From PVC group bacterium (lineage in GTDB: Bacteria; Verrucomicrobiota; Kiritimatiellia; CAIKKV01), in assembly GCA_945898015.1 (NCBI GenBank), contig CAMDGM010000006.1, forward strand, positions 11,032-75,031: a stretch of 64,000 nt of DNA, in the 5' to 3' direction. The notes beneath the pieces are model-generated. The model was not told where the DNA came from. It saw only the letters and a list, made by a program, of their open reading frames with translations, and did no database searches. The first letter of the stretch is position 1; every line of letters begins with the position of its first letter. Shown piece by piece: positions 37,544 to 63,618 of this stretch. The position numbers and the translations under genes were made by a program.

Positions 37544-39790
37544 TCACCACTGGAACACAAAATCGGCTGTGACCGCCGCCGTGGGCGCCAGGGTGTCATA
37601 CCGGAAGTGATTGTATTTCGCAAAGGAGCTGGAATAGGAATAGACCACCTTGGTCGGCTCCAGGCAGCCGGACAGTTCCGCGCCCGCCGCCGTCGGAGTC
37701 AGCCGCATCAGAGGGCCGTCCCCCACACGCCCTTCAAGCCCCTCCATCGTGCCCCCCGCATCCGCGCGAATCTGGAAGAGCCAGGACAGCTTGCGCGGCT
37801 TGTCCAGCACCACATAATCCCGGCACGTCACCGACCGGTTGGTGGACACCCGGAACTCGCGGGTATAGTGCGCGACGCCCGCTTCCGGCGGATAGGCCCG
37901 CTTCAAGTCGAGCCGGATCAGCCCCTCGCCCGTCGCCGGATTCCAGCGGACCTCCTCCACCCGGTCGCCCCGGTGCGGCTGCGAGGGAATGGACATGGGA
38001 TACCCCACGTCGCCGATCTGACCCTGCCCGTCCACCAGCATGCAGGAGCGGACGGCGGACCGCAGCTTGTACCCGATGTCCGGGCTGACCAGCACCGGGC
38101 GACCGCCCAGATACAGGGCAAAATGCCCGGCCCCGGGGAGGCATTCCATCATGTCGCACGGGCCCGTCGCGCGCCGCTGGGTGTTGTACCCCAGCCACGG
38201 CCCGCATTTCACGGACAGCGCCACGCCAGTATCGTCATTGCGATATTGGACAAATCCGGAATCCTCGAACAGGCGGAGATCCCGCCTCGGGCGGACCGGA
38301 ACCGGCAGCGAATCCGACGCCGGATCGTGCGCCAGGAATCCCCACAACAGCCCCAGCGCCGCCGTGCAGGCGCCCGTCTTCAACACCTCCGCCGGACGGT
38401 CCCGCATCACCCGGGCGACCCGGGCGGCCTCGCCATCCCGCCACGTGGCCGCCATGGATTCCAGAAAGAGCTCACCGCCAAACAGCGGGGCCTTGTCGCC
38501 GCACTCCACCATGAGCAGGGTCAGGTCCTTTTCGTCCAGCACGGTGGTTATGAAGGAGGGCACCGCCTTCAGAGACGGATGCCCCAGCAGATCCACGCCG
38601 GTGCGGGCGAGCAGCGAGTCGCGGTACCACATGACGCCGTCGGTATACATGTGCAACCCGTTGTAGGAGCTGCCCGGAATGACGCCGTCCAGCGCGGCCG
38701 CGTCCAGGCCGCGCTCGATGCGGGGGACAATGTAGCTGACCCAGCGATCCGCCTCGGGCGCGATGCCCCACAAGCACATGGCGGCGGTGCCGAAATCATG
38801 CACCGCCTTGCGCCCGTGATCCTGGATGAGGGAGCCGCCCCAGTAATCGCGCATCAGCAGGATCTGCACCCAGAAGGCTTCGCCCTGATAGACCAGCTTC
38901 CGATACAGCCGCTCCTTGCGTTCAGGGCCCAGCTCGTTGCCCAGCATATGGTAGGCCAGCGCCATATTCCGCAGCATGGCCCCGGCGCCAATGTCGCCAT
39001 TATGGCCGTACACATCCTCCGCCGGCCGCCCCCACGCCGGCAGCTCGATGGCGCTATCCACCAACTTCAACGCCTGCGCCAGCGCCTCTTTCTGCCCGTC
39101 CAGGTGATACGCGGCCACCAGCACCGGAATCGCATCCTGCCCGCCGGAAGCCTGTTTCGCCCAATCAAATACCGCCCGCATGGCCTTCTGATAAGGCTGG
39201 TGCGTGGTCTCCAGTTTCCGGCGCTGCCCGGACCAGAAGGCCGGATCCGAAAATTGCGCGGCCGGAAGCGCGGAAGGCGAATGAGTGGGGCGCAGGCCCG
39301 GCCGCAGCGTGTCCTCGGGATCCGCCTCCAGCCGCGCCGACAGCCAGGCAACCTTCATGGGGCGGAACGGCTCGAAAGACAGCTCATGCAACCCGGCCGC
39401 CCGGATATCCATGGAAAACCGGCCGCGGAAGCGCTTGGCCGCCACATCCTCCAGCGACACGCGCTGGACATACCATAGCCCCAGTTTTTTCCCGTCGAGC
39501 TTGATCCAGTAGCTCGGCACCACCGGCCGGGCGGTCATCAGCTCGAAATCCCACGGCCCTGTTCGCTCGTTTTCGTTGTGGTGCACATTCAGCACCTGGT
39601 AAAGCGATTCCCAGTCGAACTGGGCGGCATCCAGAAAAAGCGAAAACTGGAGCAGACCCGGCTCGCTCTCGAACCGGATGATTTTGCCGCCCTCGGGAAG
39701 CTCCTGCACGGGAAGCACCGTGGTGCCGCCCGATGTCCACACTGTCAATCCTGTCATCGCCGCCATCATTTCAGCCCCCTTCTTCATCAT
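37544..39790 (-). CDS. heparinase II/III-like (alpha/alpha-toroid plus beta-sandwich) putative polysaccharide lyase with an extra N-terminal beta-domain
   Basis: 748 aa. The middle region (WGRPAEDVYGHNGDIGAGAMLRNMALAYH) and the C-terminal block (AGHFALYLGGRPVLVSPDIGY) fit the family layout. No signal peptide seen. ATGA overlap with the upstream gene. Confidence 0.6.
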   Translation of the reverse strand: MMKKGAEMMAAMTGLTVWTSGGTTVLPVQELPEGGKIIRFESEPGLLQFSLFLDAAQFDWESLYQVLNVHHNENERTGPWDFELMTARPVVPSYWIKLDGKKLGLWYVQRVSLEDVAAKRFRGRFSMDIRAAGLHELSFEPFRPMKVAWLSARLEADPEDTLRPGLRPTHSPSALPAAQFSDPAFWSGQRRKLETTHQPYQKAMRAVFDWAKQASGGQDAIPVLVAAYHLDGQKEALAQALKLVDSAIELPAWGRPAEDVYGHNGDIGAGAMLRNMALAYHMLGNELGPERKERLYRKLVYQGEAFWVQILLMRDYWGGSLIQDHGRKAVHDFGTAAMCLWGIAPEADRWVSYIVPRIERGLDAAALDGVIPGSSYNGLHMYTDGVMWYRDSLLARTGVDLLGHPSLKAVPSFITTVLDEKDLTLLMVECGDKAPLFGGELFLESMAATWRDGEAARVARVMRDRPAEVLKTGACTAALGLLWGFLAHDPASDSLPVPVRPRRDLRLFEDSGFVQYRNDDTGVALSVKCGPWLGYNTQRRATGPCDMMECLPGAGHFALYLGGRPVLVSPDIGYKLRSAVRSCMLVDGQGQIGDVGYPMSIPSQPHRGDRVEEVRWNPATGEGLIRLDLKRAYPPEAGVAHYTREFRVSTNRSVTCRDYVVLDKPRKLSWLFQIRADAGGTMEGLEGRVGDGPLMRLTPTAAGAELSGCLEPTKVVYSYSSSFAKYNHFRYDTLAPTAAVTADFVFQW

Positions 39791-40803
39791 TCGCCTGTTC
39801 CTGTCTTTTCCGCGGACCGCTTCGCCAACACGTGATACGTTTCGGGCCGCCGATACTGCCGCCGCACGGACTCACGGTCCGGTGCGCTCTCCTGATCGTT
39901 CGGCCATTTCCGTTTTTCTTGGATTGTCGTCTCGCCCACCGCCATCCCCGTGCCGGAACCCGGCACGGCGGCCCGCACATCGCCATTCGGCGCAATCACG
40001 CAGGACCCGCCGGGCCCGCCCGATTCAAGGGGCGCGAAGGAGCTGTACAGCAGGGCGCTGAAATGATCGCTGGCCCGGACACGAAGCCGGTTGCGTCCCA
40101 TGTCGCGCGTCTCGTCGGGCAGCGTATAGCCCGCGGAAGGATGCAGGACCAGCTGGGCGCCTTGAACGGCCAGCGCGGCCGTCGCTTCCGGAAACTGGAT
40201 GTCATAACAGATGGCGAACCCGATCCGTCCGATCGTCGTCTCCGCCACATCATACGTCCGCCCGGGCGTAAAATGAACCGCCTCATCCGACGGCAGGTGA
40301 ATCTTGTCGTACTGAAGCACCAGCGTCCCGTCCACGTCCGCCAGCAGCCCGGTATTGTAAAGGCGCCCGCCCCGCGACATCAGCGTGGCCGCCCCGATCA
40401 GCAGGCGATGCTCGCGGCTCCACCGGGCCAGGGATTCAGCGAAAAGCCGGCCGGACCACGCATACAGATGCACCGCATCCTTCACCGCATGCGGGTTCGG
40501 GGCGATCTCCGGCGCCGGCGACGCCAGCACCCCCGGCACAAAGCAGAACTCGGGAAACAGGAGCAGCTCCACGTTCCGGGCCGCCGCCTTTTTAACCCAC
40601 GCTTCCAGATACAGCAGATAAGACTCGCCGTATTGCCGGACGTAGGTTTCGTCATAAGTGGAGGCACCCAGATTGTACTTGAGGAAATGATCCCGCCGGC
40701 CGGCGGGATCATTCGGCAACTGCCTCATCCGCCGCGCCTTCGCGCTCAAAGGCTGGGCCGCCGCCAGCCGCACTGTTTTCATCGTTTTCATAATCCGCCC
40801 CAT
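39787..40803 (-). CDS. carbon-nitrogen hydrolase (nitrilase-superfamily amidase)
   Basis: Catalytic triad context: LLLFPEFCF (Glu), YDKIHLP (Lys), GFAICYDIQFPE (Cys). Start ambiguous (40803 or 40791). The ORF-track start at 40998 overlaps the upstream gene. Confidence 0.75.
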   Translation of the reverse strand: MGRIMKTMKTVRLAAAQPLSAKARRMRQLPNDPAGRRDHFLKYNLGASTYDETYVRQYGESYLLYLEAWVKKAAARNVELLLFPEFCFVPGVLASPAPEIAPNPHAVKDAVHLYAWSGRLFAESLARWSREHRLLIGAATLMSRGGRLYNTGLLADVDGTLVLQYDKIHLPSDEAVHFTPGRTYDVAETTIGRIGFAICYDIQFPEATAALAVQGAQLVLHPSAGYTLPDETRDMGRNRLRVRASDHFSALLYSSFAPLESGGPGGSCVIAPNGDVRAAVPGSGTGMAVGETTIQEKRKWPNDQESAPDRESVRRQYRRPETYHVLAKRSAEKTGTGE

Positions 40804-40808
40804 CCGCT

Positions 40809-42761
40809 TCAGTCTTTCACGTCCACCCGCGCCTGCTTCAGGTCGAACGTCACCGTGGTCGACCGCCGGCCGCGCTGGACACTCACCGTGAACGCCTCCG
40901 CCGTCATGGGCGCCCCCTGCCGTTCGAACGCGGCCGGACGGAACCCCTTCTTCCCGAATTGAAGCGCGGTAACAAACACCAGCCGCGGTTTGCGGCACAG
41001 GTTTTCGACATACAGGTACCGGAGGCGCCGTTCCGCCAGACCGGGCGGCGGCTGGTATGTCGTCTTCCGGTCATCCAGCCCCATGATCAGATGATCGTTC
41101 TTCGCCGGGGACAACAGCGTCCCCTGCAACAGCGCCGGCCCGTTCGTGAAGGCGAAGCGGTCGCCGCCCCACTCCACCCCGCCGGCGGGATGAAACTGGA
41201 CGCGCGCACGAACCGGCCGGACGGCCCGGACCTCATCCACCAGCAGGACCACGTCGGGCTGCAGATACACCACATACCGGCGCACCCTCGTCGCCAAAGG
41301 CTTGTACACCGACGTCATGTCCACCACCGCCGCCTCATGCCGGCGGCCGGACTCGACCCTGAGGAAACGGGCGCGGGCGCCGACGAACGGCTGGGGATAC
41401 TGCCCCTCCAGCGTCACCAGGTTATGCCCGAGCGCGGCCACATAATCAAAGTCCCACCGCATCCAGCGCTTATTCTCGATGTCGTAGTAGCCCGGCTTGG
41501 CGCCCTTGACCTTCGGATCCTTGCGGCCCTCGTACGGATACGACCATTTATCCTCCTCGGCCAGCAATTCACGGCCTTCCGCATGGATCACCAGGTTCCC
41601 GAAATCCATCTGGCAGTGGTGGTTGAAGTGCGGAATATCGCCCGCCTGGAATCCGATATACGAATCCCGCGGCCCGAACCCGCCGCGCCAGACCGCCACT
41701 CCCACGCCTGGAAAAAACCGGCTTGCCGGCTTGCCGCTCGGCGGCGCCTCCGCCTTCAGGGCGGGATCCAGCAGATACAATTGATTAAGGGATTTAACCC
41801 CCTGGCGGAGCGCCGCCCACTGGTAAGCCGGGCTCTGATAGGCCCGGGCCAGCCCCAGCAGTGTGATGGAGGGACCCACCTTCTTGGTCGCATCCGACCA
41901 GTTCCAGATTTCATCTTTCCCCGTCTGCATGAACATCCGGAAATCGCCGGTTTTTCTCAGAAACGGATGCTTGAACAGGTCCACCGCTCCGCCGGTGAAG
42001 ATGTTCAGCGTCCGCGCGAACAGGACCGCATAGCCCAGCCCGTAATCCCAGTACCCCGGCCCCTCGTTCCACCCCCCCGCCGGGTCGCCCGTGCCCAGGC
42101 AAACCAGCATGGCCTCGATCGCATATTCGAGAAATTCCCGATAATCGGGACACTCTTCGGCGAACGCCATGGCCCCGACCGCGAAGGTGCCCGGCAGGAT
42201 GATGCGCCAGTTCGCCTTGTTTTTCATCCAGGGATACGTCTTGGCCCGCTCGGCCGCCAGGCCCGGCTTCAGGCAGCGGTTCACCATCAGGTCCGCCATC
42301 CGGCGCCGGACGCCCGCGTCCAGAGCCTCGCCGAAACAGCTCTTCATCATGGCCAGGCAGAGCGCCACCTCGGCGGTCCGCAGGTCCATGTCCAGCACGC
42401 CGATGCAGGAGGAGAAGGTCCAGTAGGGGCGCGGGCACGTCTCAAACGCCGTCAACGCCTCAAGCGCCGGCGGAATCGCCCGCCGATCGCCCGTGAACAG
42501 GTAATACAGGGCCGCGCGCTGGGCCTTGTGGAACACCTTGGCGCACCGGGAGTCCCAGTCCTCCTTCGGGTCCAGGGGCTTCATCATCAGGTCGTACTCG
42601 GCCTTCAACACCGCCGGGTACCGGTCCGCCTTGATCCGGATTTCTTCGGGCGACAGGACGTCCCTGAAAATATTCGGCGGCGGACCGCTCCGCTCCCACC
42701 GGTCAAACGCCTTGAAAAAGGCCAGCTCCGCCGGCTTGAACGCTTTTCGATGAATGGCCAT
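40809..42761 (-). CDS. heparinase II/III-like protein, cytoplasmic type (paralog of 61582-63618)
   Basis: 650 aa. PWMKNKANWRIILPG, GGWNEGPGYWDYG and HFNHHCQMDFGNLVIHAEGRELL blocks. No signal peptide. AAGGAA RBS. Confidence 0.6.
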   Translation of the reverse strand: MAIHRKAFKPAELAFFKAFDRWERSGPPPNIFRDVLSPEEIRIKADRYPAVLKAEYDLMMKPLDPKEDWDSRCAKVFHKAQRAALYYLFTGDRRAIPPALEALTAFETCPRPYWTFSSCIGVLDMDLRTAEVALCLAMMKSCFGEALDAGVRRRMADLMVNRCLKPGLAAERAKTYPWMKNKANWRIILPGTFAVGAMAFAEECPDYREFLEYAIEAMLVCLGTGDPAGGWNEGPGYWDYGLGYAVLFARTLNIFTGGAVDLFKHPFLRKTGDFRMFMQTGKDEIWNWSDATKKVGPSITLLGLARAYQSPAYQWAALRQGVKSLNQLYLLDPALKAEAPPSGKPASRFFPGVGVAVWRGGFGPRDSYIGFQAGDIPHFNHHCQMDFGNLVIHAEGRELLAEEDKWSYPYEGRKDPKVKGAKPGYYDIENKRWMRWDFDYVAALGHNLVTLEGQYPQPFVGARARFLRVESGRRHEAAVVDMTSVYKPLATRVRRYVVYLQPDVVLLVDEVRAVRPVRARVQFHPAGGVEWGGDRFAFTNGPALLQGTLLSPAKNDHLIMGLDDRKTTYQPPPGLAERRLRYLYVENLCRKPRLVFVTALQFGKKGFRPAAFERQGAPMTAEAFTVSVQRGRRSTTVTFDLKQARVDVKD

Positions 42762-42784: not shown

Positions 42785-44290
42785 TTACACCGTTTCGGAC
42801 AGGACATAGGGCCGCATCGCGCGCGCGAGGAGGTCCGCGTCGGACTGGTGGGGATTCCAGAGCGTTTCGGCGAAGAGCGACACGCTGGGCTGCACGCGCC
42901 CGTCGAACAAGCCATCCTCCACGAGTCCGGTGGCCCAGACGTTGGGGTTGACGGCGCAGACTTCCCGGTAGAACCGGGCCGCCAGCGGGTAATGCCGGAA
43001 CCAGCCGGCATTAATCCCGTTCCACTCCCCCTGCCGGGCGGCCAGCCGTTCCCGGAGATAGGCGGGATCGCGCTCGCCGAGCAGGAACGGGCCATGCTTG
43101 GCGAACTCGTCCCCCCATCGCAGGCACATCCACCCCTTCGGCACCAGCGCGAACGGCGAGCCGGGCCGGAATGCGGCAAGCTGTTTCGAATAGGCCAGCG
43201 TGGACTCGAACCCGTCATCCTGGCTGGGATTCGGCGAATAGCTGAACGGCAGGGCGCCGGCGTCCTCCCACGTGATGACCAGCTTCGGATCGAGCCCCGC
43301 CAGGTCCGTGTAATGCGCGCGGATCGACGTCGCGTGCAGCCCGAACTGGATCGACAGCTTCGGATCGAGCGCGTAGAACTCTTTCGCGATCTCGTTCACC
43401 ATGTCACAGCACCAGGCGGCGACCGAGCGGCCGTTGATCTCCTGGGTCTTATGTTCCGTTTCGGACTGGAAATAGAGGCCGTCGATCGGCAGCCCGGCAT
43501 ACTCTTCCCGGTACGCGTCCAGCGCCAGCTCCTTGATGAAGGCCCGGCCCTCGGCGGTCGAAATGTCGCGCTTGTAGCCCCAGCCCCAGTTGAACCCGGC
43601 AATGATCTTGATGCCACGCTGGTGGGCGTAGTCGCAAATCTCCCGCAGATTCACCGGCGCTTCGCTGTTCCAGATCGTCAGCATATTGAACTTCAACCGC
43701 GCCATGTTGTCGAGGAAGCGCCGGTAATCGTAGATGACATACCCCCACGTCCAGATACCGCGCTCCTTCACCGCCGGGGCCTCGACGACCGACCGGTCCG
43801 CCAGTTTCGCCAGCGCTGCGCGCCGCTCCACCGGCTTGTCGAGCGGCACCACCTGGTCCGACAGCGCCGCCAGCAATTCCTGCGCGCCGTAATAAACGCC
43901 CACCGCGTCCGCGCCGGCCACCACCATCAGCCGATGCTCCGCGTTCCACGGCGCCGGGCCGACCCACCAGGTGAACCCCTGCGCCCCAGCCGGCGCCGGA
44001 ATGACCTTGTCCGCCACGAGCTGCGCAATGACCGGATTGCTCCGGACGGTGCCGAGCAGCACCACGTGCTCGCACACCGGCTGATAGCGCCGGCTCTGCC
44101 GGTCCGTCCCGGGCTTCAGCCGGAGCGCCAGCGTCTTCGGATCCACGTCCGAAGCCGGACGAACGGGCAGGACATAATTCACGTACAAATTCAGGCCTCG
44201 ATACAATTCTGTGAGCGCCTGCTGTTCCACGCCCTCATACGAACCGTAAACCAGGGTCCACCGCTTTTCACCGGGAGTCAAATCCGCCAT
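42785..44290 (-). CDS. putative glycoside-hydrolase-like TIM-barrel protein (GH20b-like N-domain), family unassigned
   Basis: 501 aa. VVAGADAVGVYYGAQELLAAL followed by VKERGIWTWGYVIYDYRRFLDNMARLKFNMLTIW resembles the N-domain/barrel junction of GH20/GH67-type enzymes. No signal peptide. Confidence 0.4.
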   Translation of the reverse strand: MADLTPGEKRWTLVYGSYEGVEQQALTELYRGLNLYVNYVLPVRPASDVDPKTLALRLKPGTDRQSRRYQPVCEHVVLLGTVRSNPVIAQLVADKVIPAPAGAQGFTWWVGPAPWNAEHRLMVVAGADAVGVYYGAQELLAALSDQVVPLDKPVERRAALAKLADRSVVEAPAVKERGIWTWGYVIYDYRRFLDNMARLKFNMLTIWNSEAPVNLREICDYAHQRGIKIIAGFNWGWGYKRDISTAEGRAFIKELALDAYREEYAGLPIDGLYFQSETEHKTQEINGRSVAAWCCDMVNEIAKEFYALDPKLSIQFGLHATSIRAHYTDLAGLDPKLVITWEDAGALPFSYSPNPSQDDGFESTLAYSKQLAAFRPGSPFALVPKGWMCLRWGDEFAKHGPFLLGERDPAYLRERLAARQGEWNGINAGWFRHYPLAARFYREVCAVNPNVWATGLVEDGLFDGRVQPSVSLFAETLWNPHQSDADLLARAMRPYVLSETV

Positions 44291-48487: not shown

Positions 48488-48947
48488 TCATTGGAATAAA
48501 TACTTGTAATCGATGCCATTAAACCAGAACCAGCGCTTGAAGGCCCGGCTGATCGCCTGGCGCAGGGCGGCCTCGTCCCGCCGGGCTTGGACGCACAGAT
48601 CTGGCTATACGGATAAAACCCGCCATGCCAGGCGCTGATGTCGGCGCGCAGTTCCGGGGGTCTCTCCAGAACCCGTGCGGATACCCGTTCATGTCCAGCC
48701 AGAAGGTCAACCGGTCGCAGCCCCAGAGCGCCATGTCTTCAATGTAGCGCTCGACGCGCTCAAGGGGCGCCGCCTCGTACCAGTTGTTGAAGTGGGTGGC
48801 AACGTACACGCCCCGGTTGTAGACCGCCGGCGACGCGCCGCGGGACAGGAGGCGGACCCGCGTCCGCTCCTGCCAGCGACTGAGGAACAGCTCCACCGCC
48901 TTGGCGACCAGCGGGTCTTGTCCATTCCGGACCGTCAACTTGATCAT
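48488..48947 (-). pseudogene. frameshifted short ORF (GH-like N-terminal fragment); pseudogene or homopolymer assembly error
   Basis: The annotated frame degenerates after ...LTFWLDMNGYPHGFWRD. Adding one C in the C5 run (forward G5 at 48656-48660) continues PPELRADISAWHGGFYPYSQICASKP. A second +1 near 48583-48585 gives RRDEAALRQAISRAFKRWFWFNGIDYKYLFQ with a stop at 48488. Confidence 0.45.
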
Positions 48948-57330: not shown

Positions 57331-59633
57331 CGCACGATCATCCAGTCCACCTGGGCGCCATCGGCCGCGGGCTTCTCGAACTGCACGGTGAAGCCGGTGG
57401 CTTCCTTCTTCACCACCGACCGGTTCCCGAGCCAGTTCTGCTCGACGAACACGGCGTAATCGGCATCCGCTTCCGGAATCGCGAACACCACGGCCAGCGA
57501 CGTGGCGCCCGCCTTGACCGGCACATTCTTGCCCCGTAAATTCCGGGCCGGCACGCCGTCGGCGGACAGGCCGGACGCCGTCACGGAGCCCTCGAATCGC
57601 GCCCCGTTCGAGAAGCGCACCTCGCCCGACTCGCGCGAGACGGTCAACGTCGTCTCCTTCGGCAGCTGGTTGGACGCAAACCCGTAATACCAGGTCACCG
57701 GCTGTTCGTGATACGGCTGCTGGAACAGGATCGCGGCCTTGGTGAAGTCCGCCTTGCAGTTGAAGCCCACCTCGGCGGAGGTTTCAAGGATGATCCCGTT
57801 TTCCCACGCCGGCTTCTGCTCCTTGGTCTTGACAAGGTCATCCCGGTTCGCCGGCCCGCCCCGCACCTGCATGACGGCATACCGCTGGACGCCGTGATTG
57901 GCAATATCCATCACCGGCGACGGAAACGCGCCGGGCACCCGGTCCCACATCCATATCTTGAAAGGAATCGGCTTGAACGGATCGGGGCCGATCGCCTGCT
58001 CGACCTCATCGCCCTCCGCGAAATCAAACGCCTTGCCGGCATCGGGATGGGGCGTGACGCCCAGGATCGACTGGGTCTTGTAGCCGTCCGACGGCACCGC
58101 CTTGGACACATCGTTTACGAAAGCGCCGGGCGCAATGGCGTAGGGCAGCGGCCGCTCATGGCCGTCCCACGTATAGTTCTCCATCCGGTACAGGGAAGGA
58201 CTGCCCGCATCCTTGGCGCCCCACCAGAGGCGGCGGATCGTGATGTCTTTCGTGCCGTCCGCGTTGACTTTCAGGCCGGTGATTTCGAACCAGCGGTAAA
58301 GCTGAGCATGGGTCGCCTCGCTAGACGAGAACCAGCGGAAAAGAGGGTGCTGGATCGCCTCGGTAGGCTCGGTGACCGTGAAAAACCGGCCGATGATGGA
58401 GTCGTCCCACGGACAATCCTTATCGCCGCGGATCAACCCGCCCATGGCGAGCCCCTTGGTGTTGACGCCAGTCGGGTAATTAGTGCCCTGCCACGTGTAG
58501 AGTCCGTGGTTCATGGCGGTCTCCCAATACGACTCGGCCGGCACAATCCAGACCTTGCCGCCCGTCACCCATTTATTGGAATTCAGATTGATCAGCGGCC
58601 GGGAGTTGGACAGGGTGTCGGGATTCTTCCCGTCCTTGAAGGTCAGCGTGTTGGTGGTCCAGTTGGCGGCCTGGACCTTGGCCCTGAAATTATTGAGCAG
58701 GCTGTGCACGTAGCCGCCGTAGAGCGTGCCGTTTTCGTCGCCCGCGGCGGAATGAATATCGCTCATGTAGTCGTACCAGGCGAAGAACATGTAGGTGTCG
58801 CCCGCCGCATACTGCTTGCGCTTGAGCATGACGTCGTAGGTCTGCTCGTCGGTGTTGCAGATCTGGTTGAGCCAGAGCAGGCCGACATTGTTTTTGTTCT
58901 GGATCCAGGCCCGGGTGACATGATCGATCGTCGCATCGGCCACGAAATAATGACTTTTCTTGACCGGATCATAGCCGACGGATTTCACGAAGAGGCGGTC
59001 CACGCCGCCCTCGTAGTAGGGGCCGCCATGGGCGTTCAGGAACTGGCCGGGCCGGATGCCGCGGATGGTCGCCACATAAAACCGGGCGTCCTTGCCCTTG
59101 GCCGTGGGCTCGGTGATCCAGTCCAGGTAGCTGTTGGACCCGTGGATCAACTTGTTGTCCAGCTTGAGGAGATGATCGGTGGTCCAATGGCCGAGACTGT
59201 CGTTCGAGTCCATGCGCAGCGTGCGCTCGAAATTCAGGCCGGACATCTGGGGCACCTTGATGGTGGTCCCGCTCTTGCCGACCTCCACGATCGTGAAGCC
59301 CGGTCCGGCGCCCCAGTTTTTCGCCGGCGCCGGAGGTTCCGGAATTCGGAACGAATGCTGGTAGGCGTTTTCCGGGTTCAGGGACTCGGATTCCGACGGA
59401 GACAGGAACAAGAGACCGCCGGTTTTAGACAGCGCCTCGGTGGCGGCCTTGAACGTCGCCTGGATGGCAGCCGGATTCGTCACCGGCCCGAAGTCCGACA
59501 GGCGAACCTTGACTGGCGGCACGGCCGGAGCCGCCGTCTGGGCCAAGGCGGTCGCGCCATACAGCCCGATTGCCAGAAGCCCAGCCCACATTCCCACAAA
59601 CCGAATTTCGAGCCTATCCAGACGTGCGCGCAT
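57327..59633 (-). CDS. secreted protein of unknown function, paralog of 48976-51279
   Basis: 768 aa with a signal peptide. LSDFGPVTNPAAIQATFKAATEALSKTGGLLFLSP, a GDENG motif, and a C-terminus ...GFTVQFEKPAADGAQVDWMIVR nearly identical to the paralog. AAGGAGAG RBS. Its stop overlaps the start of the giant gene (ATGA). Confidence 0.4.
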   Translation of the reverse strand: MRARLDRLEIRFVGMWAGLLAIGLYGATALAQTAAPAVPPVKVRLSDFGPVTNPAAIQATFKAATEALSKTGGLLFLSPSESESLNPENAYQHSFRIPEPPAPAKNWGAGPGFTIVEVGKSGTTIKVPQMSGLNFERTLRMDSNDSLGHWTTDHLLKLDNKLIHGSNSYLDWITEPTAKGKDARFYVATIRGIRPGQFLNAHGGPYYEGGVDRLFVKSVGYDPVKKSHYFVADATIDHVTRAWIQNKNNVGLLWLNQICNTDEQTYDVMLKRKQYAAGDTYMFFAWYDYMSDIHSAAGDENGTLYGGYVHSLLNNFRAKVQAANWTTNTLTFKDGKNPDTLSNSRPLINLNSNKWVTGGKVWIVPAESYWETAMNHGLYTWQGTNYPTGVNTKGLAMGGLIRGDKDCPWDDSIIGRFFTVTEPTEAIQHPLFRWFSSSEATHAQLYRWFEITGLKVNADGTKDITIRRLWWGAKDAGSPSLYRMENYTWDGHERPLPYAIAPGAFVNDVSKAVPSDGYKTQSILGVTPHPDAGKAFDFAEGDEVEQAIGPDPFKPIPFKIWMWDRVPGAFPSPVMDIANHGVQRYAVMQVRGGPANRDDLVKTKEQKPAWENGIILETSAEVGFNCKADFTKAAILFQQPYHEQPVTWYYGFASNQLPKETTLTVSRESGEVRFSNGARFEGSVTASGLSADGVPARNLRGKNVPVKAGATSLAVVFAIPEADADYAVFVEQNWLGNRSVVKKEATGFTVQFEKPAADGAQVDWMIVR

Positions 59634-59723
59634 ACACTCTCCTTGATTTTTGTCGGGTTATCCTACAATGACTCTATCTGCTTACTCAAGAAAAACCGGA
59701 TTATCTCCTCGATTCGATTTCTG

Positions 59724-61571
59724 TCATGCTTTCCCGGCCTCCAGAGGAAGGCGCAACGACATCACTTTCGGACCGCAGGAGAAATAATAGCGGCCGTCAA
59801 TGATCACGGCCCCTCGATGGAATAACGAGCCGCCGGGCCATTTTTTCACCTGGGCGCCGGAACACCGGTACAAGACCTCGATTTTCCCCGTCTCCGGCCG
59901 CCAGCGGAAGAGGGAAATCCAGGTGATCCCGTATATCGCGCCATCGGGCCCCCAGCACATCGACTGCTCCCGGCAGGCCGAGAGGCGGGACGGAATCCGG
60001 TAATCCATCGTGCGGGTCGCCACATCGAACCGGAAGAAACAGAAATCACTCCCGGTCGTGCCATACAGCTTGCCATCCCGGTAAAGCAGGTTAAGGATGC
60101 CGGTCACCCCGGGTTTCAACGCCTCCTTCCAGAGGAGTTTCCGCCGGGCCACATCCCAGGCGAAGAGATGCGCCGCTTTCGTCACCGGATCCGTGCCACT
60201 GCCGCCTCCAATGCTCGTGCCGCCATACACAATGTCGCCCGACTCCGACGCCGTAAGCGCGATCACGCTTTGATTCGGAATGACCACGGGGTTGTTCACG
60301 TAGGTCTGGCGAAGCGTCTCATAGCACCCCAGCCCGCCGGTGCGCCGGCCGTATTCGGGGAAACTGCCGATCCACACCCGCTTCCGGCTGTCCACGAACA
60401 TGGCGCGGGGCCGGTTGTGGCCCGTGCCCAGCTGCGTGAGGAGCCGGGGATTATCCTTCCACATTCGCGCGCCGGGCGGATCCCGGTGAAGCGGCCGGGC
60501 CGGGTCATAGCACATCAGGTTGCCAAAGCTGTAACAGGCGTAATACAGCTTGCCGTCGCAATGCCCGAACGAATAGGCCTCGCCGTTATCCGGTGCGCCG
60601 CGCCCGAGATTTTCCAGCTTGCGCGTGGCCGGCGTGTACCGCAACAGGTACAGCGGCATGATCGTGCTGGCATACACGGTCTTACCCGGCCCCTCGGCCA
60701 GATGGAAAATGTCGGACCCGTCCCCCTTGTAGGTCATGGGAAAATGCCGGGCGCTCGCCCCCTCTCCCACGGCTATCACATCCGGGTCCAGCCGCCGGAT
60801 CCGGCGGCCATCCGGCAAGGCCGGCTGCGCCCAGTCCATCGTCTTTGTCTTTTTTTCAGGAAAAGCTTCGCCATGGGCCAGCCGATACCGGTTGCCGGTC
60901 ACGGCGCGGGTATACACCTGGCCGTCCGAGCTGCGCCCCAGCTGCGGAAAATCGGGACCGCAGTCGGATTCCGGCAACAGCAGCGTCGTGCGCCCGGTGG
61001 CGATATGATAGGCCGCCACCTGGGTCTTCTCTATGCCAAGGGAGCCATAGATATAGCCGTCGGCGCCATCAACCACCGTGCGCAAATACTTCAAGGTCGG
61101 ATGCAGCCGGCCGAGATCCTCCAGCTTCTCCGTCTCCGCGTCATACCGGAACAGGCGGGTTTCCGACGACGTCGCCAGGTAAAACCTGCCGTCCGAACCC
61201 CGCGTGATATCCCAGGTCCACTGGCGGAGCCGGGCCGTGACCCACAGCTTGCCGGTCTTCGGATCGAACCGGCAGAGATCCCCGTTGCAGCTGGTGACGA
61301 GCACGTGGCCGTCCATCGTGAACGCCATGCCCCACGGCCCGCTGCACTTCGGCGGCAGCCGGAAGTGCCGGCACCGGCCGGTCTCGGCCTCCATCTGCAC
61401 AAGCAGGGCCGGCCGGGTGAAGATGCCGGCGTAAATGTAATCCCGGCCGGTCCCGGCATCACGCCAGGGCTTGACCGTCTGGCAGCTGCCCTCGTACACG
61501 GCGATGCCGTGGTCACGAAGATTACCGATCAAGGGTCTTGTCATCGTCTTACGGTCCGTCATGGAGCACAT
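59724..61571 (-). CDS. cytoplasmic beta-propeller repeat protein, unknown function
   Basis: 615 aa with no signal peptide. Recurrent blade-like units (DGHVLVTS, DGRFYLATS, DGYIYGS, DGKLYYAC, GDIVYGGT, DGKLYGTT, DGAIYGIT). The start may be 61562. Confidence 0.5.
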   Translation of the reverse strand: MCSMTDRKTMTRPLIGNLRDHGIAVYEGSCQTVKPWRDAGTGRDYIYAGIFTRPALLVQMEAETGRCRHFRLPPKCSGPWGMAFTMDGHVLVTSCNGDLCRFDPKTGKLWVTARLRQWTWDITRGSDGRFYLATSSETRLFRYDAETEKLEDLGRLHPTLKYLRTVVDGADGYIYGSLGIEKTQVAAYHIATGRTTLLLPESDCGPDFPQLGRSSDGQVYTRAVTGNRYRLAHGEAFPEKKTKTMDWAQPALPDGRRIRRLDPDVIAVGEGASARHFPMTYKGDGSDIFHLAEGPGKTVYASTIMPLYLLRYTPATRKLENLGRGAPDNGEAYSFGHCDGKLYYACYSFGNLMCYDPARPLHRDPPGARMWKDNPRLLTQLGTGHNRPRAMFVDSRKRVWIGSFPEYGRRTGGLGCYETLRQTYVNNPVVIPNQSVIALTASESGDIVYGGTSIGGGSGTDPVTKAAHLFAWDVARRKLLWKEALKPGVTGILNLLYRDGKLYGTTGSDFCFFRFDVATRTMDYRIPSRLSACREQSMCWGPDGAIYGITWISLFRWRPETGKIEVLYRCSGAQVKKWPGGSLFHRGAVIIDGRYYFSCGPKVMSLRLPLEAGKA

Positions 61572-61581
61572 CCTAGGTCAG

Positions 61582-63618
61582 TCAACCCACGTCCGCGGCC
61601 GGACGATCCAAATCAAAGGCCACACGCGCCGTCCGGCGTCCTCGCCGGACGATCACGGAAAACCGGTTGTCGGTCGAAGGCGCCCCCTCCAGCTCGAAGG
61701 TGGCCGGCGCCAGGCCCCGGCGCCCGAACTGCAGGGCCGACACAAACACGAGCCGGGGCTTCCGGTAGAGGTTCTCGATATACACAAAGCGATTCCGGAC
61801 CGCCTGCAGGCCCGCGGGCGGCAGATAGGTCGTGACGCGCTCGTCGTGTCCCACGATCAGGTGATCCGCCCGCTTCGGGTACAGCGACTGCATCCTCAGC
61901 TGCGCCGGCCCGTTGGTGATCGTGAAGGCGTCATCCTCCCGGGCCAGGCGGGCGTCCACGCCGGCCAGGGGGGCCGGCCCGACGTTGCCCTCGACCGACG
62001 CCACCGCGATCGACGTTGGATAGTGGAACAGGAGTCGCGCGCGGACGGGTCGGCGGGCGAGAATCTCGTCGACCACCAGCATCACATCCGGATGCACAAA
62101 GACCACGTGCCGCCGCACACGCCGGGCCAGCGGCGTGTAGAACGGGGTCGAGTCCATCACCGTGGCGTCGAAGCCCTTGCCGGACCGGCAATAGAGGAAC
62201 CGCGACTTGACCTTCAGGCGGAGCTGCGGATAGTCGCCCTCCAGCATCACGCCGTTGTGCCCCACAGCCATCCGGGAGTCGAAATCGGCGCTCAGCCAGC
62301 GCTTGTTGTCGATATCGTAAAACCCCGGCTTGTACCCTTTTTTCGTCGGGTCCTTCCGCCCTTCGTACGGATAGGGCCAGCCGTTCAATTCGCTGAGCAG
62401 CTCCCGGCCCGCCGCATAGACCACCAGGCTGCCCATGTCGAGATGACAGTGGTGATTGTAATGCACGATGTCGCCAGCCTTGAGCCCGATGTAGGTGTCG
62501 CGATCGCCGAACCCGGTGCGCCACACCTGCACGCCCAGGTCCGGGAACAGCTTGGTCCGCGGATAGCCCGCGGCTTCGGGCGTCACCGCCGGCAGCGACG
62601 GATCGTAAAAGAACACCTGCCAGGCCGTGGACACGCCCAGCGCCAGCGCCCGCTGCTGGTGAACGGGGTTGCGGTCCGCCCGCGCATAGGCCATTTCCCC
62701 GGTCGTGGGGCCGCACGTCTTGCCGCCGTCCGACCAGTTCCACAAGCCGTCGCGCCGGGTGTGCATATAAAGCCAGAAGTCGCTCGTGCGCTGCAGGAAC
62801 GGGTGGCGGAAGAGATCCACCTCCCCGCCCGTGAAGACCCGGAGGGCCCAGCAGACGGTCGCGGTGAAGCCCAGGCCGTAGTTCCAATACCCCGGCCCCT
62901 CGTTCCAGCCGCCGGCGCGATCCCCCGTTTCAAGCCCCACCAGCACGCCCTCGATGGCATACTCCATGAGCTCGCGGTACTCCGGAAAATCCTCGGCAAA
63001 CACCATGCCGCCCATGGCAAGGCCCCCGCACAGGATCTGGCGCCAGTTGGCCTTGCTGTGCATCCAGGGATAGGTCTTGTTCCGCTCCGCCTCGAGCCCG
63101 GGGGCGAGGATGCGGGTCACCATCGTGTGCGACATGCGCCGGCGGACCGCCACCGGGATCAGGTCGCCGAAACAGCTCTTGATCATGGCCATGCCGTGCG
63201 CGACATGCGCCGTTCGCAAGTCCATGTCGAGCACCCCGAGGCACGACGAATAGGTGAAATGCTTGCGGTCGCATCGCTCCGCCGCCTCAAACCCCTCAAT
63301 GGCAACGGGCAGGGTCCGCTTCAAATCCCCCGTGAACAGGTAGTACAGGGAGGCCAGCTCCATTTTCGCCAGGGCCTTGCCGTGCCCCTTGTCCCAGTCC
63401 TGCGTCCAGTCGTAGGGCTTGCACACCACCTCAAACTGCTTGTCCAGGACGGACCGGAACTGGCGCCCTTTCAGCCGGATCTCCTCCGGCGTCATCATGT
63501 CGCGCATGATGTTCGGCGGCGACGCCGGGAGCGTCCAGCGGTCGAACGCCTCGAAATACCGCCGGGCGGAGGGTTTGAATTGACGCCGGTTCACAGTCCT
63601 GTGCTTGTGCTGGGCCAT
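61582..63618 (-). CDS. heparinase II/III-like protein, cytoplasmic type (paralog of 40809-42761)
   Basis: 678 aa from ATG 63618. It shares PWMHSKANWRQILCG, GGWNEGPGYWNYG and HYNHHCHLDMGSLVVYAAGRELL with the paralog. The ORF-track start at 63690 gives an unlikely extension. Confidence 0.6.
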   Translation of the reverse strand: MAQHKHRTVNRRQFKPSARRYFEAFDRWTLPASPPNIMRDMMTPEEIRLKGRQFRSVLDKQFEVVCKPYDWTQDWDKGHGKALAKMELASLYYLFTGDLKRTLPVAIEGFEAAERCDRKHFTYSSCLGVLDMDLRTAHVAHGMAMIKSCFGDLIPVAVRRRMSHTMVTRILAPGLEAERNKTYPWMHSKANWRQILCGGLAMGGMVFAEDFPEYRELMEYAIEGVLVGLETGDRAGGWNEGPGYWNYGLGFTATVCWALRVFTGGEVDLFRHPFLQRTSDFWLYMHTRRDGLWNWSDGGKTCGPTTGEMAYARADRNPVHQQRALALGVSTAWQVFFYDPSLPAVTPEAAGYPRTKLFPDLGVQVWRTGFGDRDTYIGLKAGDIVHYNHHCHLDMGSLVVYAAGRELLSELNGWPYPYEGRKDPTKKGYKPGFYDIDNKRWLSADFDSRMAVGHNGVMLEGDYPQLRLKVKSRFLYCRSGKGFDATVMDSTPFYTPLARRVRRHVVFVHPDVMLVVDEILARRPVRARLLFHYPTSIAVASVEGNVGPAPLAGVDARLAREDDAFTITNGPAQLRMQSLYPKRADHLIVGHDERVTTYLPPAGLQAVRNRFVYIENLYRKPRLVFVSALQFGRRGLAPATFELEGAPSTDNRFSVIVRRGRRTARVAFDLDRPAADVG

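Follow-up and report, generated by a model that had tools for sequence, protein, structure and literature searches.

A 26-kb gene array in an uncultured freshwater PVC-group bacterium points to a probable undescribed family of secreted glycan-active proteins

Layout and regulator of the array

We analysed a 64-kb stretch of DNA (the window) from an uncultured freshwater PVC-group bacterium, in which a 26-kb array on the minus strand runs from position 63618 to 37544 and comprises 12 solid genes and one gene remnant (g07). At its head stands a regulator truncated at the edge of the window, with its N-terminus beyond it. The features are listed from the head of the array.

63663–64000, minus strand: regulator C-terminus, about 111 codons, PBP1/LacI-type sugar-binding domain (Peripla_BP_3, E 1.5e-22)
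61582–63618, minus strand: g01, 678-aa PL35/PL15-like (heparinase II/III-like) putative lyase without signal peptide (Hepar_II_III_C)
59724–61571, minus strand: g02, 615-aa beta-propeller protein without signal peptide (PQQ_2 repeats)
57327–59633, minus strand: g03, 768-aa secreted protein with signal peptide, g03-type subfamily of the 767-aa family
53443–57330, minus strand: g04, 1295-aa secreted FG-GAP repeat protein (FG-GAP_3, E 3e-22)
51357–53369, minus strand: g05, 670-aa Gfo/Idh/MocA-type NAD(P) oxidoreductase (GH109-like) without signal peptide
48976–51279, minus strand: g06, 767-aa secreted protein with signal peptide, g06-type subfamily of the 767-aa family
48519–48947, minus strand: g07, gene remnant covering the opening ~100 codons of a ~616-aa gene whose N-terminal domain is GH20b-like
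46040–48463, minus strand: g08, 807-aa secreted protein with a GH66-like fold (AF2 and Foldseek)
44307–46043, minus strand: g09, 578-aa secreted GATase1-like and HEAT-repeat protein, partner of g08 (Pfam)
42785–44290, minus strand: g10, 501-aa protein with a GH115/GH67/GH20b-type N-terminal domain and a putative TIM barrel, without signal peptide
40809–42761, minus strand: g11, 650-aa PL35/PL15-like putative lyase without signal peptide (Hepar_II_III_C)
39787–40803, minus strand: g12, ~338-aa nitrilase-superfamily C-N hydrolase (amidase) without signal peptide (CN_hydrolase)
37544–39790, minus strand: g13, 748-aa very distant candidate relative of heparinase II/III and DUF4962 proteins, without signal peptide

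The preliminary description had counted thirteen co-directional open reading frames (ORFs); the minus-strand layout holds, with the correction that g07 is a truncated remnant. The three ATGA start/stop overlaps that it reported, each of 4 nt, lie at 57327/57330, 46040/46043 and 39787/39790. Its statement that no gap exceeds about 90 bp depends on g07: the remaining intergenic gaps are at most 90 nt if this 142-codon ORF is counted, and one of 512 nt appears if it is not. In-frame GC3 of the array ORFs is 0.77–0.88 against a GC2 of 0.45–0.52, nine products are exact sequences in a public NCBI/ENA contig (135,194 bp), and the proteins have hundreds of homologs. Thus, we conclude that these are real genes. 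Downstream of the array lie lysA, dapA, dapB and panB. Promoter and terminator patterns across the array occurred at chance level only. A promoter-like site lies at 59727–59700, upstream of g03.

Sec signal peptides were found on g03, g04, g06, g08 and g09 only, leaving seven products (g01, g02, g05 and g10–g13) without one. Pfam and NCBIfam gave no family-level assignment for g03, g06, g08, g10 and g13 and generic domains alone for g02, g04, g05 and g09, and we found no paper describing the array's gene set. Within the reach of these tools, most ORFs did not fall into well-characterised families that make up a known PUL type, and sequence comparison suggests that most array proteins, above all the secreted 767-aa family, fall outside described enzyme families. 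As first described for the locus, the searches yielded no transporter, SusC/D, sulfatase or Kdu/UGL genes. Within the 64-kb window there is also no unsaturated-uronate pathway (GH88/GH105, KduI/KduD) and no intact esterase.

We compared synteny with over 20 independent loci from MAGs or metagenomes (labels L004–L088). The regulator fragment, whose 111 codons span 63663–63998, is 65% identical to L062:3326-4522, which combines a GntR wHTH with Peripla_BP_3, and GntR-type HTH domains are also borne by its nearest homologs. The array had been called LacI-headed; this is right for the ligand-binding domain, and the complete regulator is probably a GntR-HTH and PBP1 hybrid, not a classical LacI.

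Lyase-like, hydrolase-like and accessory products

Two of the three proteins initially read as heparinase II/III-like exceed the Pfam cut-off of 24 for Hepar_II_III_C (g01, 31.9 bits; g11, 26.3 bits). Their PDB matches include the PL35 structure 8KHV (E 5.6e-15 for g01, 1e-17 for g11) and the PL15 structure 3A0O (E 2e-8 and 4.6e-11), with 9O3Q also matched by g11 (E 3.9e-16). NW, YWdYG and HH..D motifs are kept in the g11 alignment and invariant in the family alignment (A5), and both proteins conserve the residues aligned to the neutraliser Asn192, Tyr246 and His401 of GAGase II. We suggest that g01 and g11 are putative, distant PL35/PL15-type lyases with the catalytic Asn/Tyr/His. Support for the third protein, g13, is sub-threshold: similarity to DUF4962 (E 0.0015) falls below the cut-off, an hhalign comparison with the g01/g11 family reaches E 7e-4 at a probability of 27% over 433 colinear columns, and PDB 6LJA is matched at E 0.11. 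Orthologs of g13 (L012, L020, L044, L081) are 49–68% identical.

The Pfam search gave no match for g08 and g10, and structure and profile comparisons point to glycoside hydrolase folds for both. The AF2 model of g08 (pLDDT 89.3, pTM 0.89) orders an N-terminal beta-sandwich, an Ig-like domain, a TIM barrel and a C-terminal beta-sandwich, and all of its top 18 Foldseek matches are GH66 (E down to 8e-29; target-length-normalised TM 0.56–0.66; identity 10–12%). Together with a profile match to the 5X7G GH66 N-domain (E 1.6e-5), this model shows a GH66-type fold, with remote similarity to GH66 (about 11% structure-based identity). The family profile of g10 (A2) matches N-terminal domains of GH115 (4ZMH, E 1.3e-11; 7PXQ, E 1.1e-8) and GH67 (1GQI, E 2.3e-5), and a few of its 647 homologs carry PF02838 or PF03648. 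The g09 product was correctly described as a secreted GATase1-like/HEAT protein, with GATase1_like at the cut-off (26.9 bits versus 27), HEAT_PBS above it (28 versus 20.9) and a signal peptide. The order g08 then g09 is kept in seven loci (L008, L010, L024, L036, L049, L053, L088), and the two are fused in the 1364-aa protein P0289 (39% identity, E 2e-90).

The remaining genes encode accessory or truncated products. For g02, PQQ_2 repeats (30.5 bits versus a cut-off of 27.6; weak Kelch, GSDH and SGL matches) and the missing signal peptide agree with the cytoplasmic beta-propeller first proposed, and the gene is syntenic with nitrilase and lyase genes (L013, L020, L038, L044, L088). The g04 product was described as combining FG-GAP, discoidin, FN3 and DNRLRE domains; FG-GAP is present, discoidin is below cut-off, and FN3 and DNRLRE gave no match. 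Its last ~83 codons (53443–53694), overlooked at first, are a truncated GDSL/SGNH esterase fragment (residues 1221–1287 on Lipase_GDSL_2 profile positions 1–74 of 178) that is 63% identical to an intact GDSL gene of L081, and the g04 homologs of L034 and L043 stop short of it. For g05, the proposed Gfo/Idh/MocA part was recovered at the cut-off (24.4 bits versus 24), alongside Glyco_hydro_109_C (26.5 versus 27) and weak NCBIfam matches to glycoside and disaccharide 3-dehydrogenases; the suggested PA14 part gave no match, and the C-terminal extension of ~370 aa was matched to no family. Orthologs of g05 adjoin 767-family genes at 72–83% identity (L004, L011, L035, L038). The g07 remnant has GC3 of 0.90 in its first 270 nt, to which the coding signature is confined, and 0.58 beyond. 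It is 63–70% identical to the start of an intact 616-aa gene, with weak Glyco_hydro_20b similarity, that follows the g06 ortholog in L081/L082, and is probably a truncated pseudogene, as judged from these comparisons. The g12 product is a nitrilase-superfamily amidase as proposed (CN_hydrolase, 88 bits, E 7.7e-25), with no NCBIfam equivalog at cut-off. Its Glu-Lys-Cys triad is complete, FPE, KIHL and ICYD motifs are kept in its orthologs, and its start codon may lie 12–21 nt further in.

The secreted 767-aa family and its neighbourhoods

The two ~767-aa secreted paralogs of the preliminary description, g03 and g06, share 47% identity, and each bears a signal peptide. Neither matched anything in Pfam, NCBIfam or PDB; the g06 profile likewise gave no PDB match, and all 282 g06 homologs are named hypothetical. 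The family forms 886 clusters at 50% identity. The AF2 model of g06 reaches pLDDT 73, with the most conserved segment modelled worst, and found no fold match. The family has a beta-helix-cap-like N-terminus and weak similarity to tail-fibre/tailspike-like all-beta proteins. Additionally, many Asp, Glu, His, Arg and Lys residues are invariant, a pattern that an active site would be expected to show.

In MAGs of Verrucomicrobiota, Kiritimatiellia, Planctomycetota and Armatimonadota, the array families appear again as movable modules, in every case grouped around the 767-aa family. Lyase, nitrilase, g13 and propeller genes accompany it in L020 and L044; a g03-type gene, g05 and a g01-type lyase gene follow one another, with a propeller gene, in L038 and L085; g08 and g09 join it in L008, L010, L024, L036, L049 and L053; and GDSL and Gfo genes with a second family member do so in L004, L011 and L035. 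A g11-type lyase gene follows a family gene directly or one gene apart in L020, L040, L044, L045 and L062, and L088 combines nitrilase, propeller and lyase genes downstream of g08 and g09. A census of 117 ORFs lying no more than 5 kb from family genes counted GDSL esterases (9), Gfo/Idh (7), 3-keto-disaccharide hydrolases (3), GH88 (2) and SASA (2). A PL8 lyase lies between two family paralogs in L006, and GH130, a PfkB kinase and four esterase-type genes stand beside the g06 ortholog in L081. These neighbours bear out the carbohydrate reading first proposed, and the family appears to be the conserved hub of such loci.

Parts of the array had been thought duplicated. The paralog pairs g03/g06 and g01/g11 are real, and duplication in place is not what their relationships indicate: protein identity within the pairs is 47% and 53%, respectively, and every copy is closer to orthologs from other MAGs (g03, 78–80% in L009, L038, L040 and L044; g06, up to 85%; g11, up to 70%; g01, 56–57%). 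Thus, they are ancient paralogs that came to share one array when modules merged. The array bears two deletion scars, namely the truncated GDSL piece and g07.

Proposed function and alternative readings

We consider it on balance probable that the array is a sugar-regulated catabolic operon, or tight operon set, that dismantles a complex acidic glycan, probably O-acetylated. The LacI-type sugar-binding repressor, probably with a GntR-type DNA-binding head, would control the 26-kb array, a step that the findings above bear out in part. Outside the cytoplasm, g03, g06, g04, the GH66-like TIM-barrel protein g08 and its partner g09 would act on the glycan, and the fragments may enter through a transporter encoded elsewhere. 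The seven products without signal peptides, including the g02 propeller, would finish degradation inside: g01 and g11 by beta-elimination next to uronic acids, with g13 as a distant relative, g10 as a GH115/GH67-like hydrolase, g05 as an NAD-dependent Gfo/Idh (GH109-like) enzyme and g12 as a nitrilase-type amidase removing an amide-linked group. The PL35/PL15, GH66 and GH115/GH67 resemblances of g01/g11, g08 and g10 accord with the depolymerisation by uncharacterised families proposed earlier. Our best guess for the substrate is a uronate-containing, O-acetylated glycan, uronates because lyases and GH88 occur together and O-acetylation because esterases occur in related loci and a GDSL remnant in the window. 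Judged purely by association, the 767-aa proteins most likely act as the key depolymerase outside the cell and would represent an undescribed family.

Alternatively, the array could be an island of three or four independent modules (g01–g03, g04–g06, g08–g09 and g10–g13) acting on different glycans or linkages and united through rearrangements, which we regard as rather unlikely, though worth serious attention. Modules are separate and differently ordered elsewhere, so a single shared substrate is not required; in ELA384, the closest MAG, the orthologs are spread over at least two contigs (L038, L081), both scars sit at junctions, and the promoter-like site precedes g03. However, the genes are very closely spaced, start/stop overlaps bridge module borders, and one regulator stands at the head. 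Additionally, the same families re-associate with the 767-aa family across phyla, and L088 joins g08–g09 to nitrilase, propeller and lyase genes. Such repeated re-association argues for functional coupling.

It is improbable that the locus serves glycan remodelling or sensing instead of depolymerisation. In that case the heparinase-like proteins would be uronyl C5-epimerases or enzymes with another non-degradative role, and the 767-aa family would consist of non-catalytic glycan-binding or surface proteins. Lyases and C5-epimerases of the heparinase II/III-like fold have C5 proton-abstraction chemistry in common, and the record name of PF16332, labelled DUF4962 in the Pfam scan, is DSE-like_N, apparently from dermatan-sulfate epimerase. 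The missing signal peptides of g01, g11 and g13 would also fit, as would a 767-aa family with weak tailspike-like similarity and without a recognisable catalytic fold. Against this, g01 and g11 find their best sequence matches among characterised lyases (PL35, PL15) and keep the lyase catalytic residues, the invariant residues of the 767-aa family are of the kind expected in an active site, and degradation agrees with the GH88, PL8, esterases and hydrolase-like folds encoded in these neighbourhoods.

A role in making the cell's own exopolysaccharide, or in modifying it in the periplasm, is highly improbable, as the 64-kb window holds no glycosyltransferase, polymerase, flippase, synthase or export gene, the regulator is of a sugar-responsive repressor type, and related loci carry catabolic genes (GH88, GH130, PfkB kinase, 3-keto-disaccharide hydrolase). 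This reading draws on an analogy with the alginate system, in which case the locus would supply a lyase, a beta-helix protein resembling an epimerase, an SGNH protein for acetyl transfer and a HEAT/TPR scaffold; the lyase-like proteins, SGNH remnant, secreted HEAT protein and beta-helix-cap-like 767 N-terminus loosely recall AlgL, AlgG, AlgX and AlgK.

Under the preferred catabolic reading, the array is of value chiefly because it may lead to a carbohydrate-active enzyme family that is probably new, the 767-aa proteins. The putative lyases beside them resemble PL35 enzymes at a distance: about a quarter of aligned residues are identical, as judged by eye in the alignment, and the Mn2+ ligand His403 of PL35 is Gln in g11. 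They also lack a signal peptide, unlike the characterised members of PL35, which are secreted enzymes.

Layout, boundaries and regulator of the array

The thirteen ORFs that the preliminary description had placed on one strand between 63618 and 37544 are indeed co-directional, all on the minus strand, and the three ATGA start/stop overlaps that it reported lie at g03/g04, g08/g09 and g12/g13. Its statement that no gap exceeds about 90 bp holds only with the remnant g07 counted as a gene, the other gaps being 5-90 nt. Codon-position GC of the array ORFs is gene-like (GC3 0.77-0.88 in a genome of 65% G+C), and nine array products are letter-for-letter identical in a public 135-kb NCBI/ENA contig. 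Of the array products, g03, g04, g06, g08 and g09 alone show an evident signal peptide.

ORFs of the array, with window coordinates, strand, product and length
g01, 61582-63618, minus, putative lyase of the heparinase II/III type, 678 aa
g02, 59724-61571, minus, beta-propeller protein, 615 aa
g03, 57327-59633, minus, secreted protein of the 767-aa family, 768 aa
g04, 53443-57330, minus, FG-GAP repeat protein, 1295 aa
g05, 51357-53369, minus, Gfo/Idh/MocA-type protein, 670 aa, counted from the first ATG
g06, 48976-51279, minus, secreted protein of the 767-aa family, 767 aa
g07, 48519-48947, minus, putative gene remnant, 142 codons
g08, 46040-48463, minus, secreted protein with a modelled GH66-like fold, 807 aa
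g09, 44307-46043, minus, GATase1-like/HEAT protein, 578 aa
g10, 42785-44290, minus, protein with a GH115/GH67-like N-terminal domain, 501 aa
g11, 40809-42761, minus, putative lyase, paralog of g01, 650 aa
g12, 39787-40803, minus, nitrilase-superfamily amidase, ~338 aa
g13, 37544-39790, minus, candidate distant relative of the heparinase II/III fold, 748 aa

Immediately downstream of the array are lysA, dapA, dapB and panB (Pfam), with carB, mutL, hybrid sensor kinases and other housekeeping genes farther on, and the array therefore ends sharply at 37544. An assignment of the three genes downstream of g13 to an ABC transporter was rejected, as these are lysA, dapA and dapB. In the g13-lysA intergenic stretch, a sigma-70-like site (37485-37514, minus; TTGACA-18-TATGGT with an extended-10 TG) fits both a promoter of lysA's own and an array ending at 37544. 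A second pattern match, to a promoter-like site (59700-59727, minus; ATGACA-16-GATAAT), falls in the 90 nt ahead of g03 and could mark an internal promoter. Promoter and terminator pattern counts across the array region are no higher than in shuffled controls.

Two further gene pairs in the window were recorded. At 544-2975 (minus), a DegT/DnrJ/EryC1-type aminotransferase gene overlaps a Gfo/Idh/MocA oxidoreductase gene by 4 nt, a pair that looks like amino-sugar nucleotide biosynthesis unrelated to the array. At 9545-13230 (minus), two hybrid sensor kinase/response-regulator genes lie side by side; one encodes an SBP_bac_3 sensor domain, and neither has an evident connection with the array.

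Directly upstream of g01, the last 111 residues of a regulator occupy 63663-64000 (minus); the N-terminus lies beyond base 64000, so that the effector domain alone falls within the window. This domain is a type-1 periplasmic-binding-protein sugar-binding domain (Peripla_BP_3, E 1.5e-22), which agrees with part of the earlier label 'LacI-headed'. The DNA-binding domain, however, is probably not of the LacI type, because the nearest homologs (65%, 52% and 48% identity), located at L062:3326-4522, L043:4747-5871 and L036:8563-9930 where they head related loci of other genomes, are hybrids of Peripla_BP_3 with a GntR-type wHTH instead. The spacer between regulator and g01 is 44 nt, which leaves little room for a promoter.

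Pfam detected no transporter, SusC/D or sulfatase in the 33 scanned window ORFs, as had been described, and no GH88/GH105 or Kdu genes in the array. An NCBIfam scan named none of the array proteins. That most ORFs lie outside characterised families is borne out, five of the 12 intact products having no family-level match in Pfam or NCBIfam, and no relevant published description of this gene combination was found in the literature.

Lyase and glycosidase relatives in the array

Three proteins had been called heparinase II/III-like; the label stands for g01 and g11, whose Hepar_II_III_C domains score above the Pfam gathering threshold, but g13 remains below it. The best PDB matches of g01 and g11, at E 1e-15 to 1e-17 and over about 370 residues, are the PL35 GAG lyases 8KHV, 8KHW and 9O3Q, and the PL15 exo-type oligoalginate lyase 3A0O (Atu3025) is matched as well. 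With phmmer, similarity to 8KHV, 8KHW and 9O3Q (E 1e-11 to 1e-17) extends over ~360-440 residues, about one quarter of them identical by eye, which suffices for placement in the superfamily and falls short of a CAZy family assignment.

In GAGase II (PL35), Tyr246 and His401 serve as acid/base and Asn192 as neutraliser, and the Mn2+ site consists of His403, Asp405, Asp421 and His457 (PMC12088678). The HMMER alignment of g11 with 8KHV pairs 'aNW' with 'nNW', 'YWdYG' with 'YWgYG' and 'nHHcqmD' with 'tsHaHmD'; by sequence alignment the Asn neutraliser and the catalytic Tyr and His of PL35 are kept in g01 and g11, and N184, Y237/Y240, H381/H382 and D386 are invariant in a seven-member alignment of the family (A5). 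At the Mn2+ site, the Asp405 equivalent and a 'GHN' His are retained, and the alignment gave no placement for Asp421. Thus g01 and g11 share the Heparinase II/III C-terminal domain and catalytic residues with PL35 (GAGase II/VII, 8KHV/8KHW) and with PL15 Atu3025 (3A0O), and are probably active beta-eliminases of the PL35/PL15 superfamily. They differ from PL35 in that g11 has Gln in place of the Mn2+ ligand His403, and in that neither has a signal peptide; the PL35 enzymes that were crystallised carried one (PMC12088678).

The third protein, g13, matches DUF4962 below threshold (E 0.0015; 17.6 bits against a Pfam cut-off of 28.7), aligns with the g01/g11 family in hhalign over 433 colinear columns (E 7e-4, probability 27%) and has a weak PDB match to 6LJA (E 0.11). 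It is a candidate distant relative of the heparinase II/III fold.

Two TIM-barrel glycosidase-like proteins, g08 and g10, had been considered unplaceable, and both are indeed without a Pfam family, but a GH66-like fold can be assigned to the first and a GH115/GH67 N-domain to the second. An AlphaFold2 model of g08, built from 60 homologs (pLDDT 89.3, pTM 0.89), retrieves only GH66 entries at Foldseek ranks 1-18 (E 8e-29 to 5e-23; TM 0.56-0.66, target-length-normalised; identity 10-12%), with GH66 dextranases and CITases such as 5AXG, 3WNK, 3VMN and 8IU8 as its PDB neighbours. The modelled chain contains the three-domain GH66 fold, that is, an Ig-like N-domain, a (beta/alpha)8 barrel and a C-terminal beta-sandwich. 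The family profile matches the GH66 N-domain alone in the PDB (E 1.6e-5); the window protein matches no Pfam family at E<=0.01, PF13199 Glyco_hydro_66 included, and precomputed PF13199 matches exist in four homologs. As modelled, g08 is GH66-like in fold, not demonstrably GH66. Invariant D502 and E603 follow strands 498-501 and 599-602 at the barrel strand ends and are inferred candidate catalytic residues.

Two features separate g08 from the GH66 dextranases and CITases: an extra N-terminal beta-sandwich, and its coupling or fusion to the GATase1-like/HEAT protein g09, for which we know of no GH66 precedent. The description of g09 as a secreted GATase1-like/HEAT protein is confirmed by Pfam domains at threshold and a signal peptide, and the GATase1_like assignment is firm in a fused g08-g09 homolog (43.6 bits). 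The gene follows g08 in seven other loci, and the two form a single polypeptide in metagenomic proteins of ~1364 aa (P0289, P0296, P0298), a classical sign of joint action. From this arrangement we predict that g08 and g09 would form a physical complex in the window organism.

The profile of the g10 family (A2) matches 4ZMH (E 1.3e-11), 7PXQ (E 1.1e-8), 6NPS (E 1.9e-7) and 1GQI (E 2.3e-5) in the PDB. All matches to GH115/GH67 fall at query ~20-190, the N-terminal alpha/beta domain, and end at the first barrel strand; significant similarity to GH115/GH67 across the catalytic barrel is absent, as is any Pfam or NCBIfam family match. The g10 family shares this N-domain, the 'RGI(W/F)' barrel entry and a C-terminal 'W-N-P' with the GH115/GH67 alpha-glucuronidases (4ZMH, 7PXQ, 1GQI), but g10 is 501 aa long against their 700-970 aa and has neither the further GH115 domains nor a signal peptide.

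The nitrilase-superfamily amidase g12 is confirmed (PF00795 CN_hydrolase, 88.1 bits against a cut-off of 23.2): the motifs of its Glu-Lys-Cys triad (LLLFPEF, YDKIHLP, AICYD) are kept in the L013 and L044 orthologs, and no NCBIfam equivalog reaches its cut-off. The 'Gfo/Idh/MocA-PA14-like fusion' g05 does have a Gfo/Idh/MocA domain and a near-threshold GH109 C-domain (Pfam), but PA14 has no match, and the 'FG-GAP/discoidin/FN3/DNRLRE protein' g04 retains the FG-GAP repeats, whereas discoidin is below threshold and FN3 and DNRLRE have no match; PA14, FN3 and DNRLRE were sought by Pfam and NCBIfam scans of protein sub-segments. The cytoplasmic beta-propeller g02 is upheld by propeller repeats in Pfam and no evident signal peptide.

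In its Rossmann domain and near-threshold GH109 C-terminal domain, g05 resembles GH109 and the Gfo/Idh glycoside 3-dehydrogenases (BT_2158/BT_2159 families). Its NCBIfam matches to glycoside and disaccharide 3-dehydrogenases are weak (26 bits against an equivalog cut-off of 650). The oxidative 3-keto-glycoside route pairs such dehydrogenases with 3-keto-disaccharide hydrolase (DUF1080), and 3keto-disac_hyd genes do occur near 767-family genes in other loci; unlike that route, g05 has a ~370-aa extension with no assigned domain and the window has no DUF1080 gene.

The 767-aa family, its neighbourhoods and the history of the array

The two secreted paralogs of ~767 aa, g03 and g06, are as described: they are 47% identical and both have a signal peptide. 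Neither has a match in Pfam, NCBIfam or the PDB, as a single sequence or as a profile, and the named homologs among the matches listed are all 'hypothetical protein'. By exhaustive profile search the family comprises 886 clusters at 50% identity, and the ten divergent or longer members scanned all lack Pfam domains. An AlphaFold2 model is mediocre (pLDDT 73) and aligns in Foldseek, against the PDB and BFVD, only over a ~60-residue N-terminal motif reminiscent of a beta-helix tailspike cap; compared by hhalign with a right-handed beta-helix family from the neighbourhood, the 767-aa family shares a 29-column N-terminal motif only (probability 2%), and no internal repeats were found among five segments of the family.

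The most invariant stretch in the family alignment (A1), rich in His, Asp, Glu and Asn, covers aa ~250-315 of g06 (window ~50335-50530) and is also the worst-modelled part in AlphaFold2 (pLDDT 32-37). A site that depends on a metal or cofactor would be one possible role for it, a new structural element another. In Verrucomicrobiota and Phycisphaeraceae MAGs (L004, L009, L021, L030), three to four paralogs stand in tandem. Secreted, highly conserved and amplified repeatedly, this large family is a hub of gene neighbourhoods and has no solved or described relative.

A scan for this family that took one genome per GTDB species returned 77 loci, mostly from lakes and groundwater and none from the window's own genome. 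All lie in MAGs of Verrucomicrobiota, Kiritimatiellia, Lentisphaeria, Planctomycetota and Armatimonadota. The best matches, with 78-83% identity for g03, g05 and g10, come from an unclassified MAG of an ELA lake and from one MAG each of Verrucomicrobiota and Kiritimatiellia. When every window protein was compared with these loci by tblastn, recurring modules emerged. In five loci (L040, L044, L045, L062, L020), a g11-type lyase gene comes next after a 767-family gene or one gene farther on, and the order g03-type gene, g05, g01-type lyase gene recurs in L038 and L085. Nitrilase, g13 and propeller join the 767-family and lyase genes in L020 and L044, and in L013 nitrilase and propeller lie ahead of a 767-family gene.

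The g08-g09 pair follows a 767-family gene in L008, L010 and L049 and lies near one in L024, L036 and L053, and on the metagenome contig L088 it is joined with nitrilase, propeller and lyase. The order 767-family gene, GDSL esterase, g05, 767-family gene is found in L004, L011 and L035, and g04 adjoins a 767-family gene in L034 and L043. A metagenome scan by g01 alone found no relative; a rescan by family alignment revealed further synteny in L085 and L088 and no regulator context.

Among 117 ORFs within 5 kb of 767-family genes, a Pfam census of families other than the window's own counted GDSL esterases (9), Gfo/Idh oxidoreductases (7, three with a GH109 C-domain), 3-keto-disaccharide hydrolase (3), GntR regulators (3), GH88 (2) and SASA esterases (2). 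In a Kiritimatiellia MAG, a PL8 lyase without signal peptide (L006:12296-14293) lies between two 767-family paralogs. In the ELA384 MAG (L081:1755-3017), the g06 ortholog stands behind PfkB kinase, GH130 and Gfo/Idh genes and four of esterase type, namely SASA, two GDSL and an S15-type esterase or peptidase.

The preliminary description held that parts of the locus are duplicated, and there are indeed two paralog pairs, g03/g06 and, at 53% protein identity, g01/g11. A recent in-situ duplication was rejected, as paralog DNA is alignable only in patches, the best segments just 72-76% identical, and each paralog is closer to outside orthologs (g03 78-80%, g06 up to 85%, g11 up to 70%, g01 56-57%). 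These closer orthologs and the low identity within pairs indicate that the duplications are old.

Two scars are visible in the window. The C-terminus of g04 (53443-53694, minus, ~83 codons) is the N-terminal third of a GDSL/SGNH esterase fused in frame, with blocks I-III only and no block V Asp/His; this fragment is absent from g04 homologs elsewhere and is 63% identical to the intact GDSL gene that precedes the g06 ortholog in L081. In g07, coding-type codon bias is confined to the first ~270 nt, and its first ~100 codons match, at 63-70% identity, the beginning of a 616-aa gene (L081:12563-14413; weak GH20b-like N-domain) that is intact after the g06 ortholog in L081/L082. Read from its sequence, g07 is a putative deletion remnant or pseudogene. 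Given the age of the duplications, the two scars, and the spread of array-gene orthologs over at least two contigs of the ELA MAG (L038, L081), the 26-kb array seems to have arisen when modules that already existed were merged and two genes were lost.

A proposed catabolic route and its relation to known systems

On balance, we favour the interpretation that the locus is a sugar-induced catabolic system for an acidic, probably O-acetylated glycan. The lyases of the array, together with PL8 and GH88 in sister loci, argue for uronate in the substrate, and the esterases that accompany the 767 family, with the esterase remnant in g04, argue for O-acetylation; the one argument for an amide group is the intact nitrilase-type amidase syntenic with the lyases. 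The identity of the polymer is not deducible from sequence, as the preliminary description also held of the gene content. In the proposed route, exported g03, g06, g04 and g08 with g09 would attack the polymer, and a transporter encoded elsewhere would import the fragments. Inside the cell, the signal-peptide-less g01 and g11, and perhaps g13, would carry out beta-elimination at uronates, g10 would hydrolyse imported fragments, g05 may perform NAD-dependent oxidation or elimination, g12 may remove an amide-linked group and g02 would contribute a step of unspecified kind.

As the main rival to this interpretation, each module could act on a glycan of its own and simply lie beside the others, which we consider unlikely; the apparent merger of modules speaks for it, and the joining of nitrilase, propeller and lyase genes with 767-family genes in some loci and with the g08-g09 pair on a metagenome contig speaks against it. 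Reading the locus in terms of epimerases or binding proteins is improbable, and reading it as EPS biosynthesis is very improbable.

Within the favoured catabolic interpretation, we tentatively propose, at less than even confidence, that the 767-aa proteins found a new CAZyme family with a novel fold or active-site module, and that, outside the cell, they are the primary depolymerase in a pathway for acidic glycans that has not been described before. Such a depolymerase might act alongside cytoplasmic lyases of PL35-like type, an amidase of the nitrilase type and a GH66-like enzyme complexed with its GATase1-like/HEAT partner. The pathway might let freshwater Verrucomicrobiota, Kiritimatiellia, Planctomycetota and Armatimonadota feed on a polysaccharide that is acidic and O-acetylated and may carry amide-linked groups.

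In lakes, soils and sediments, PVC-group bacteria and Armatimonadota are generally regarded as important consumers of complex glycans, and much of the machinery presumed to serve this degradation is annotated as hypothetical. Here several dark families are gathered around lyase and hydrolase relatives and recur jointly across phyla, so that proteins once only listed as hypothetical become an enzyme set that is defined and can be tested, its notable parts being the 767 family, the g08-g09 pair and the nitrilase-type amidase among lyases. If these were characterised, new CAZyme families could follow, and the polymer that feeds the hosts, such as an exopolysaccharide of algae, cyanobacteria or bacteria, could be revealed.

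Like the SusC/SusD PULs of Bacteroidota, the array places co-directional genes for secreted and intracellular glycan-active proteins under a sugar-responsive regulator. It differs from them in its PVC-group host, in having neither a SusC/SusD pair nor a transporter among the window ORFs scanned, and in that most of its components belong to no described CAZyme family. In PVC bacteria, CAZyme clusters that lack SusC/D are to be expected. Thus, the kind of system is known, and what is unusual is how few of its products fit described families.
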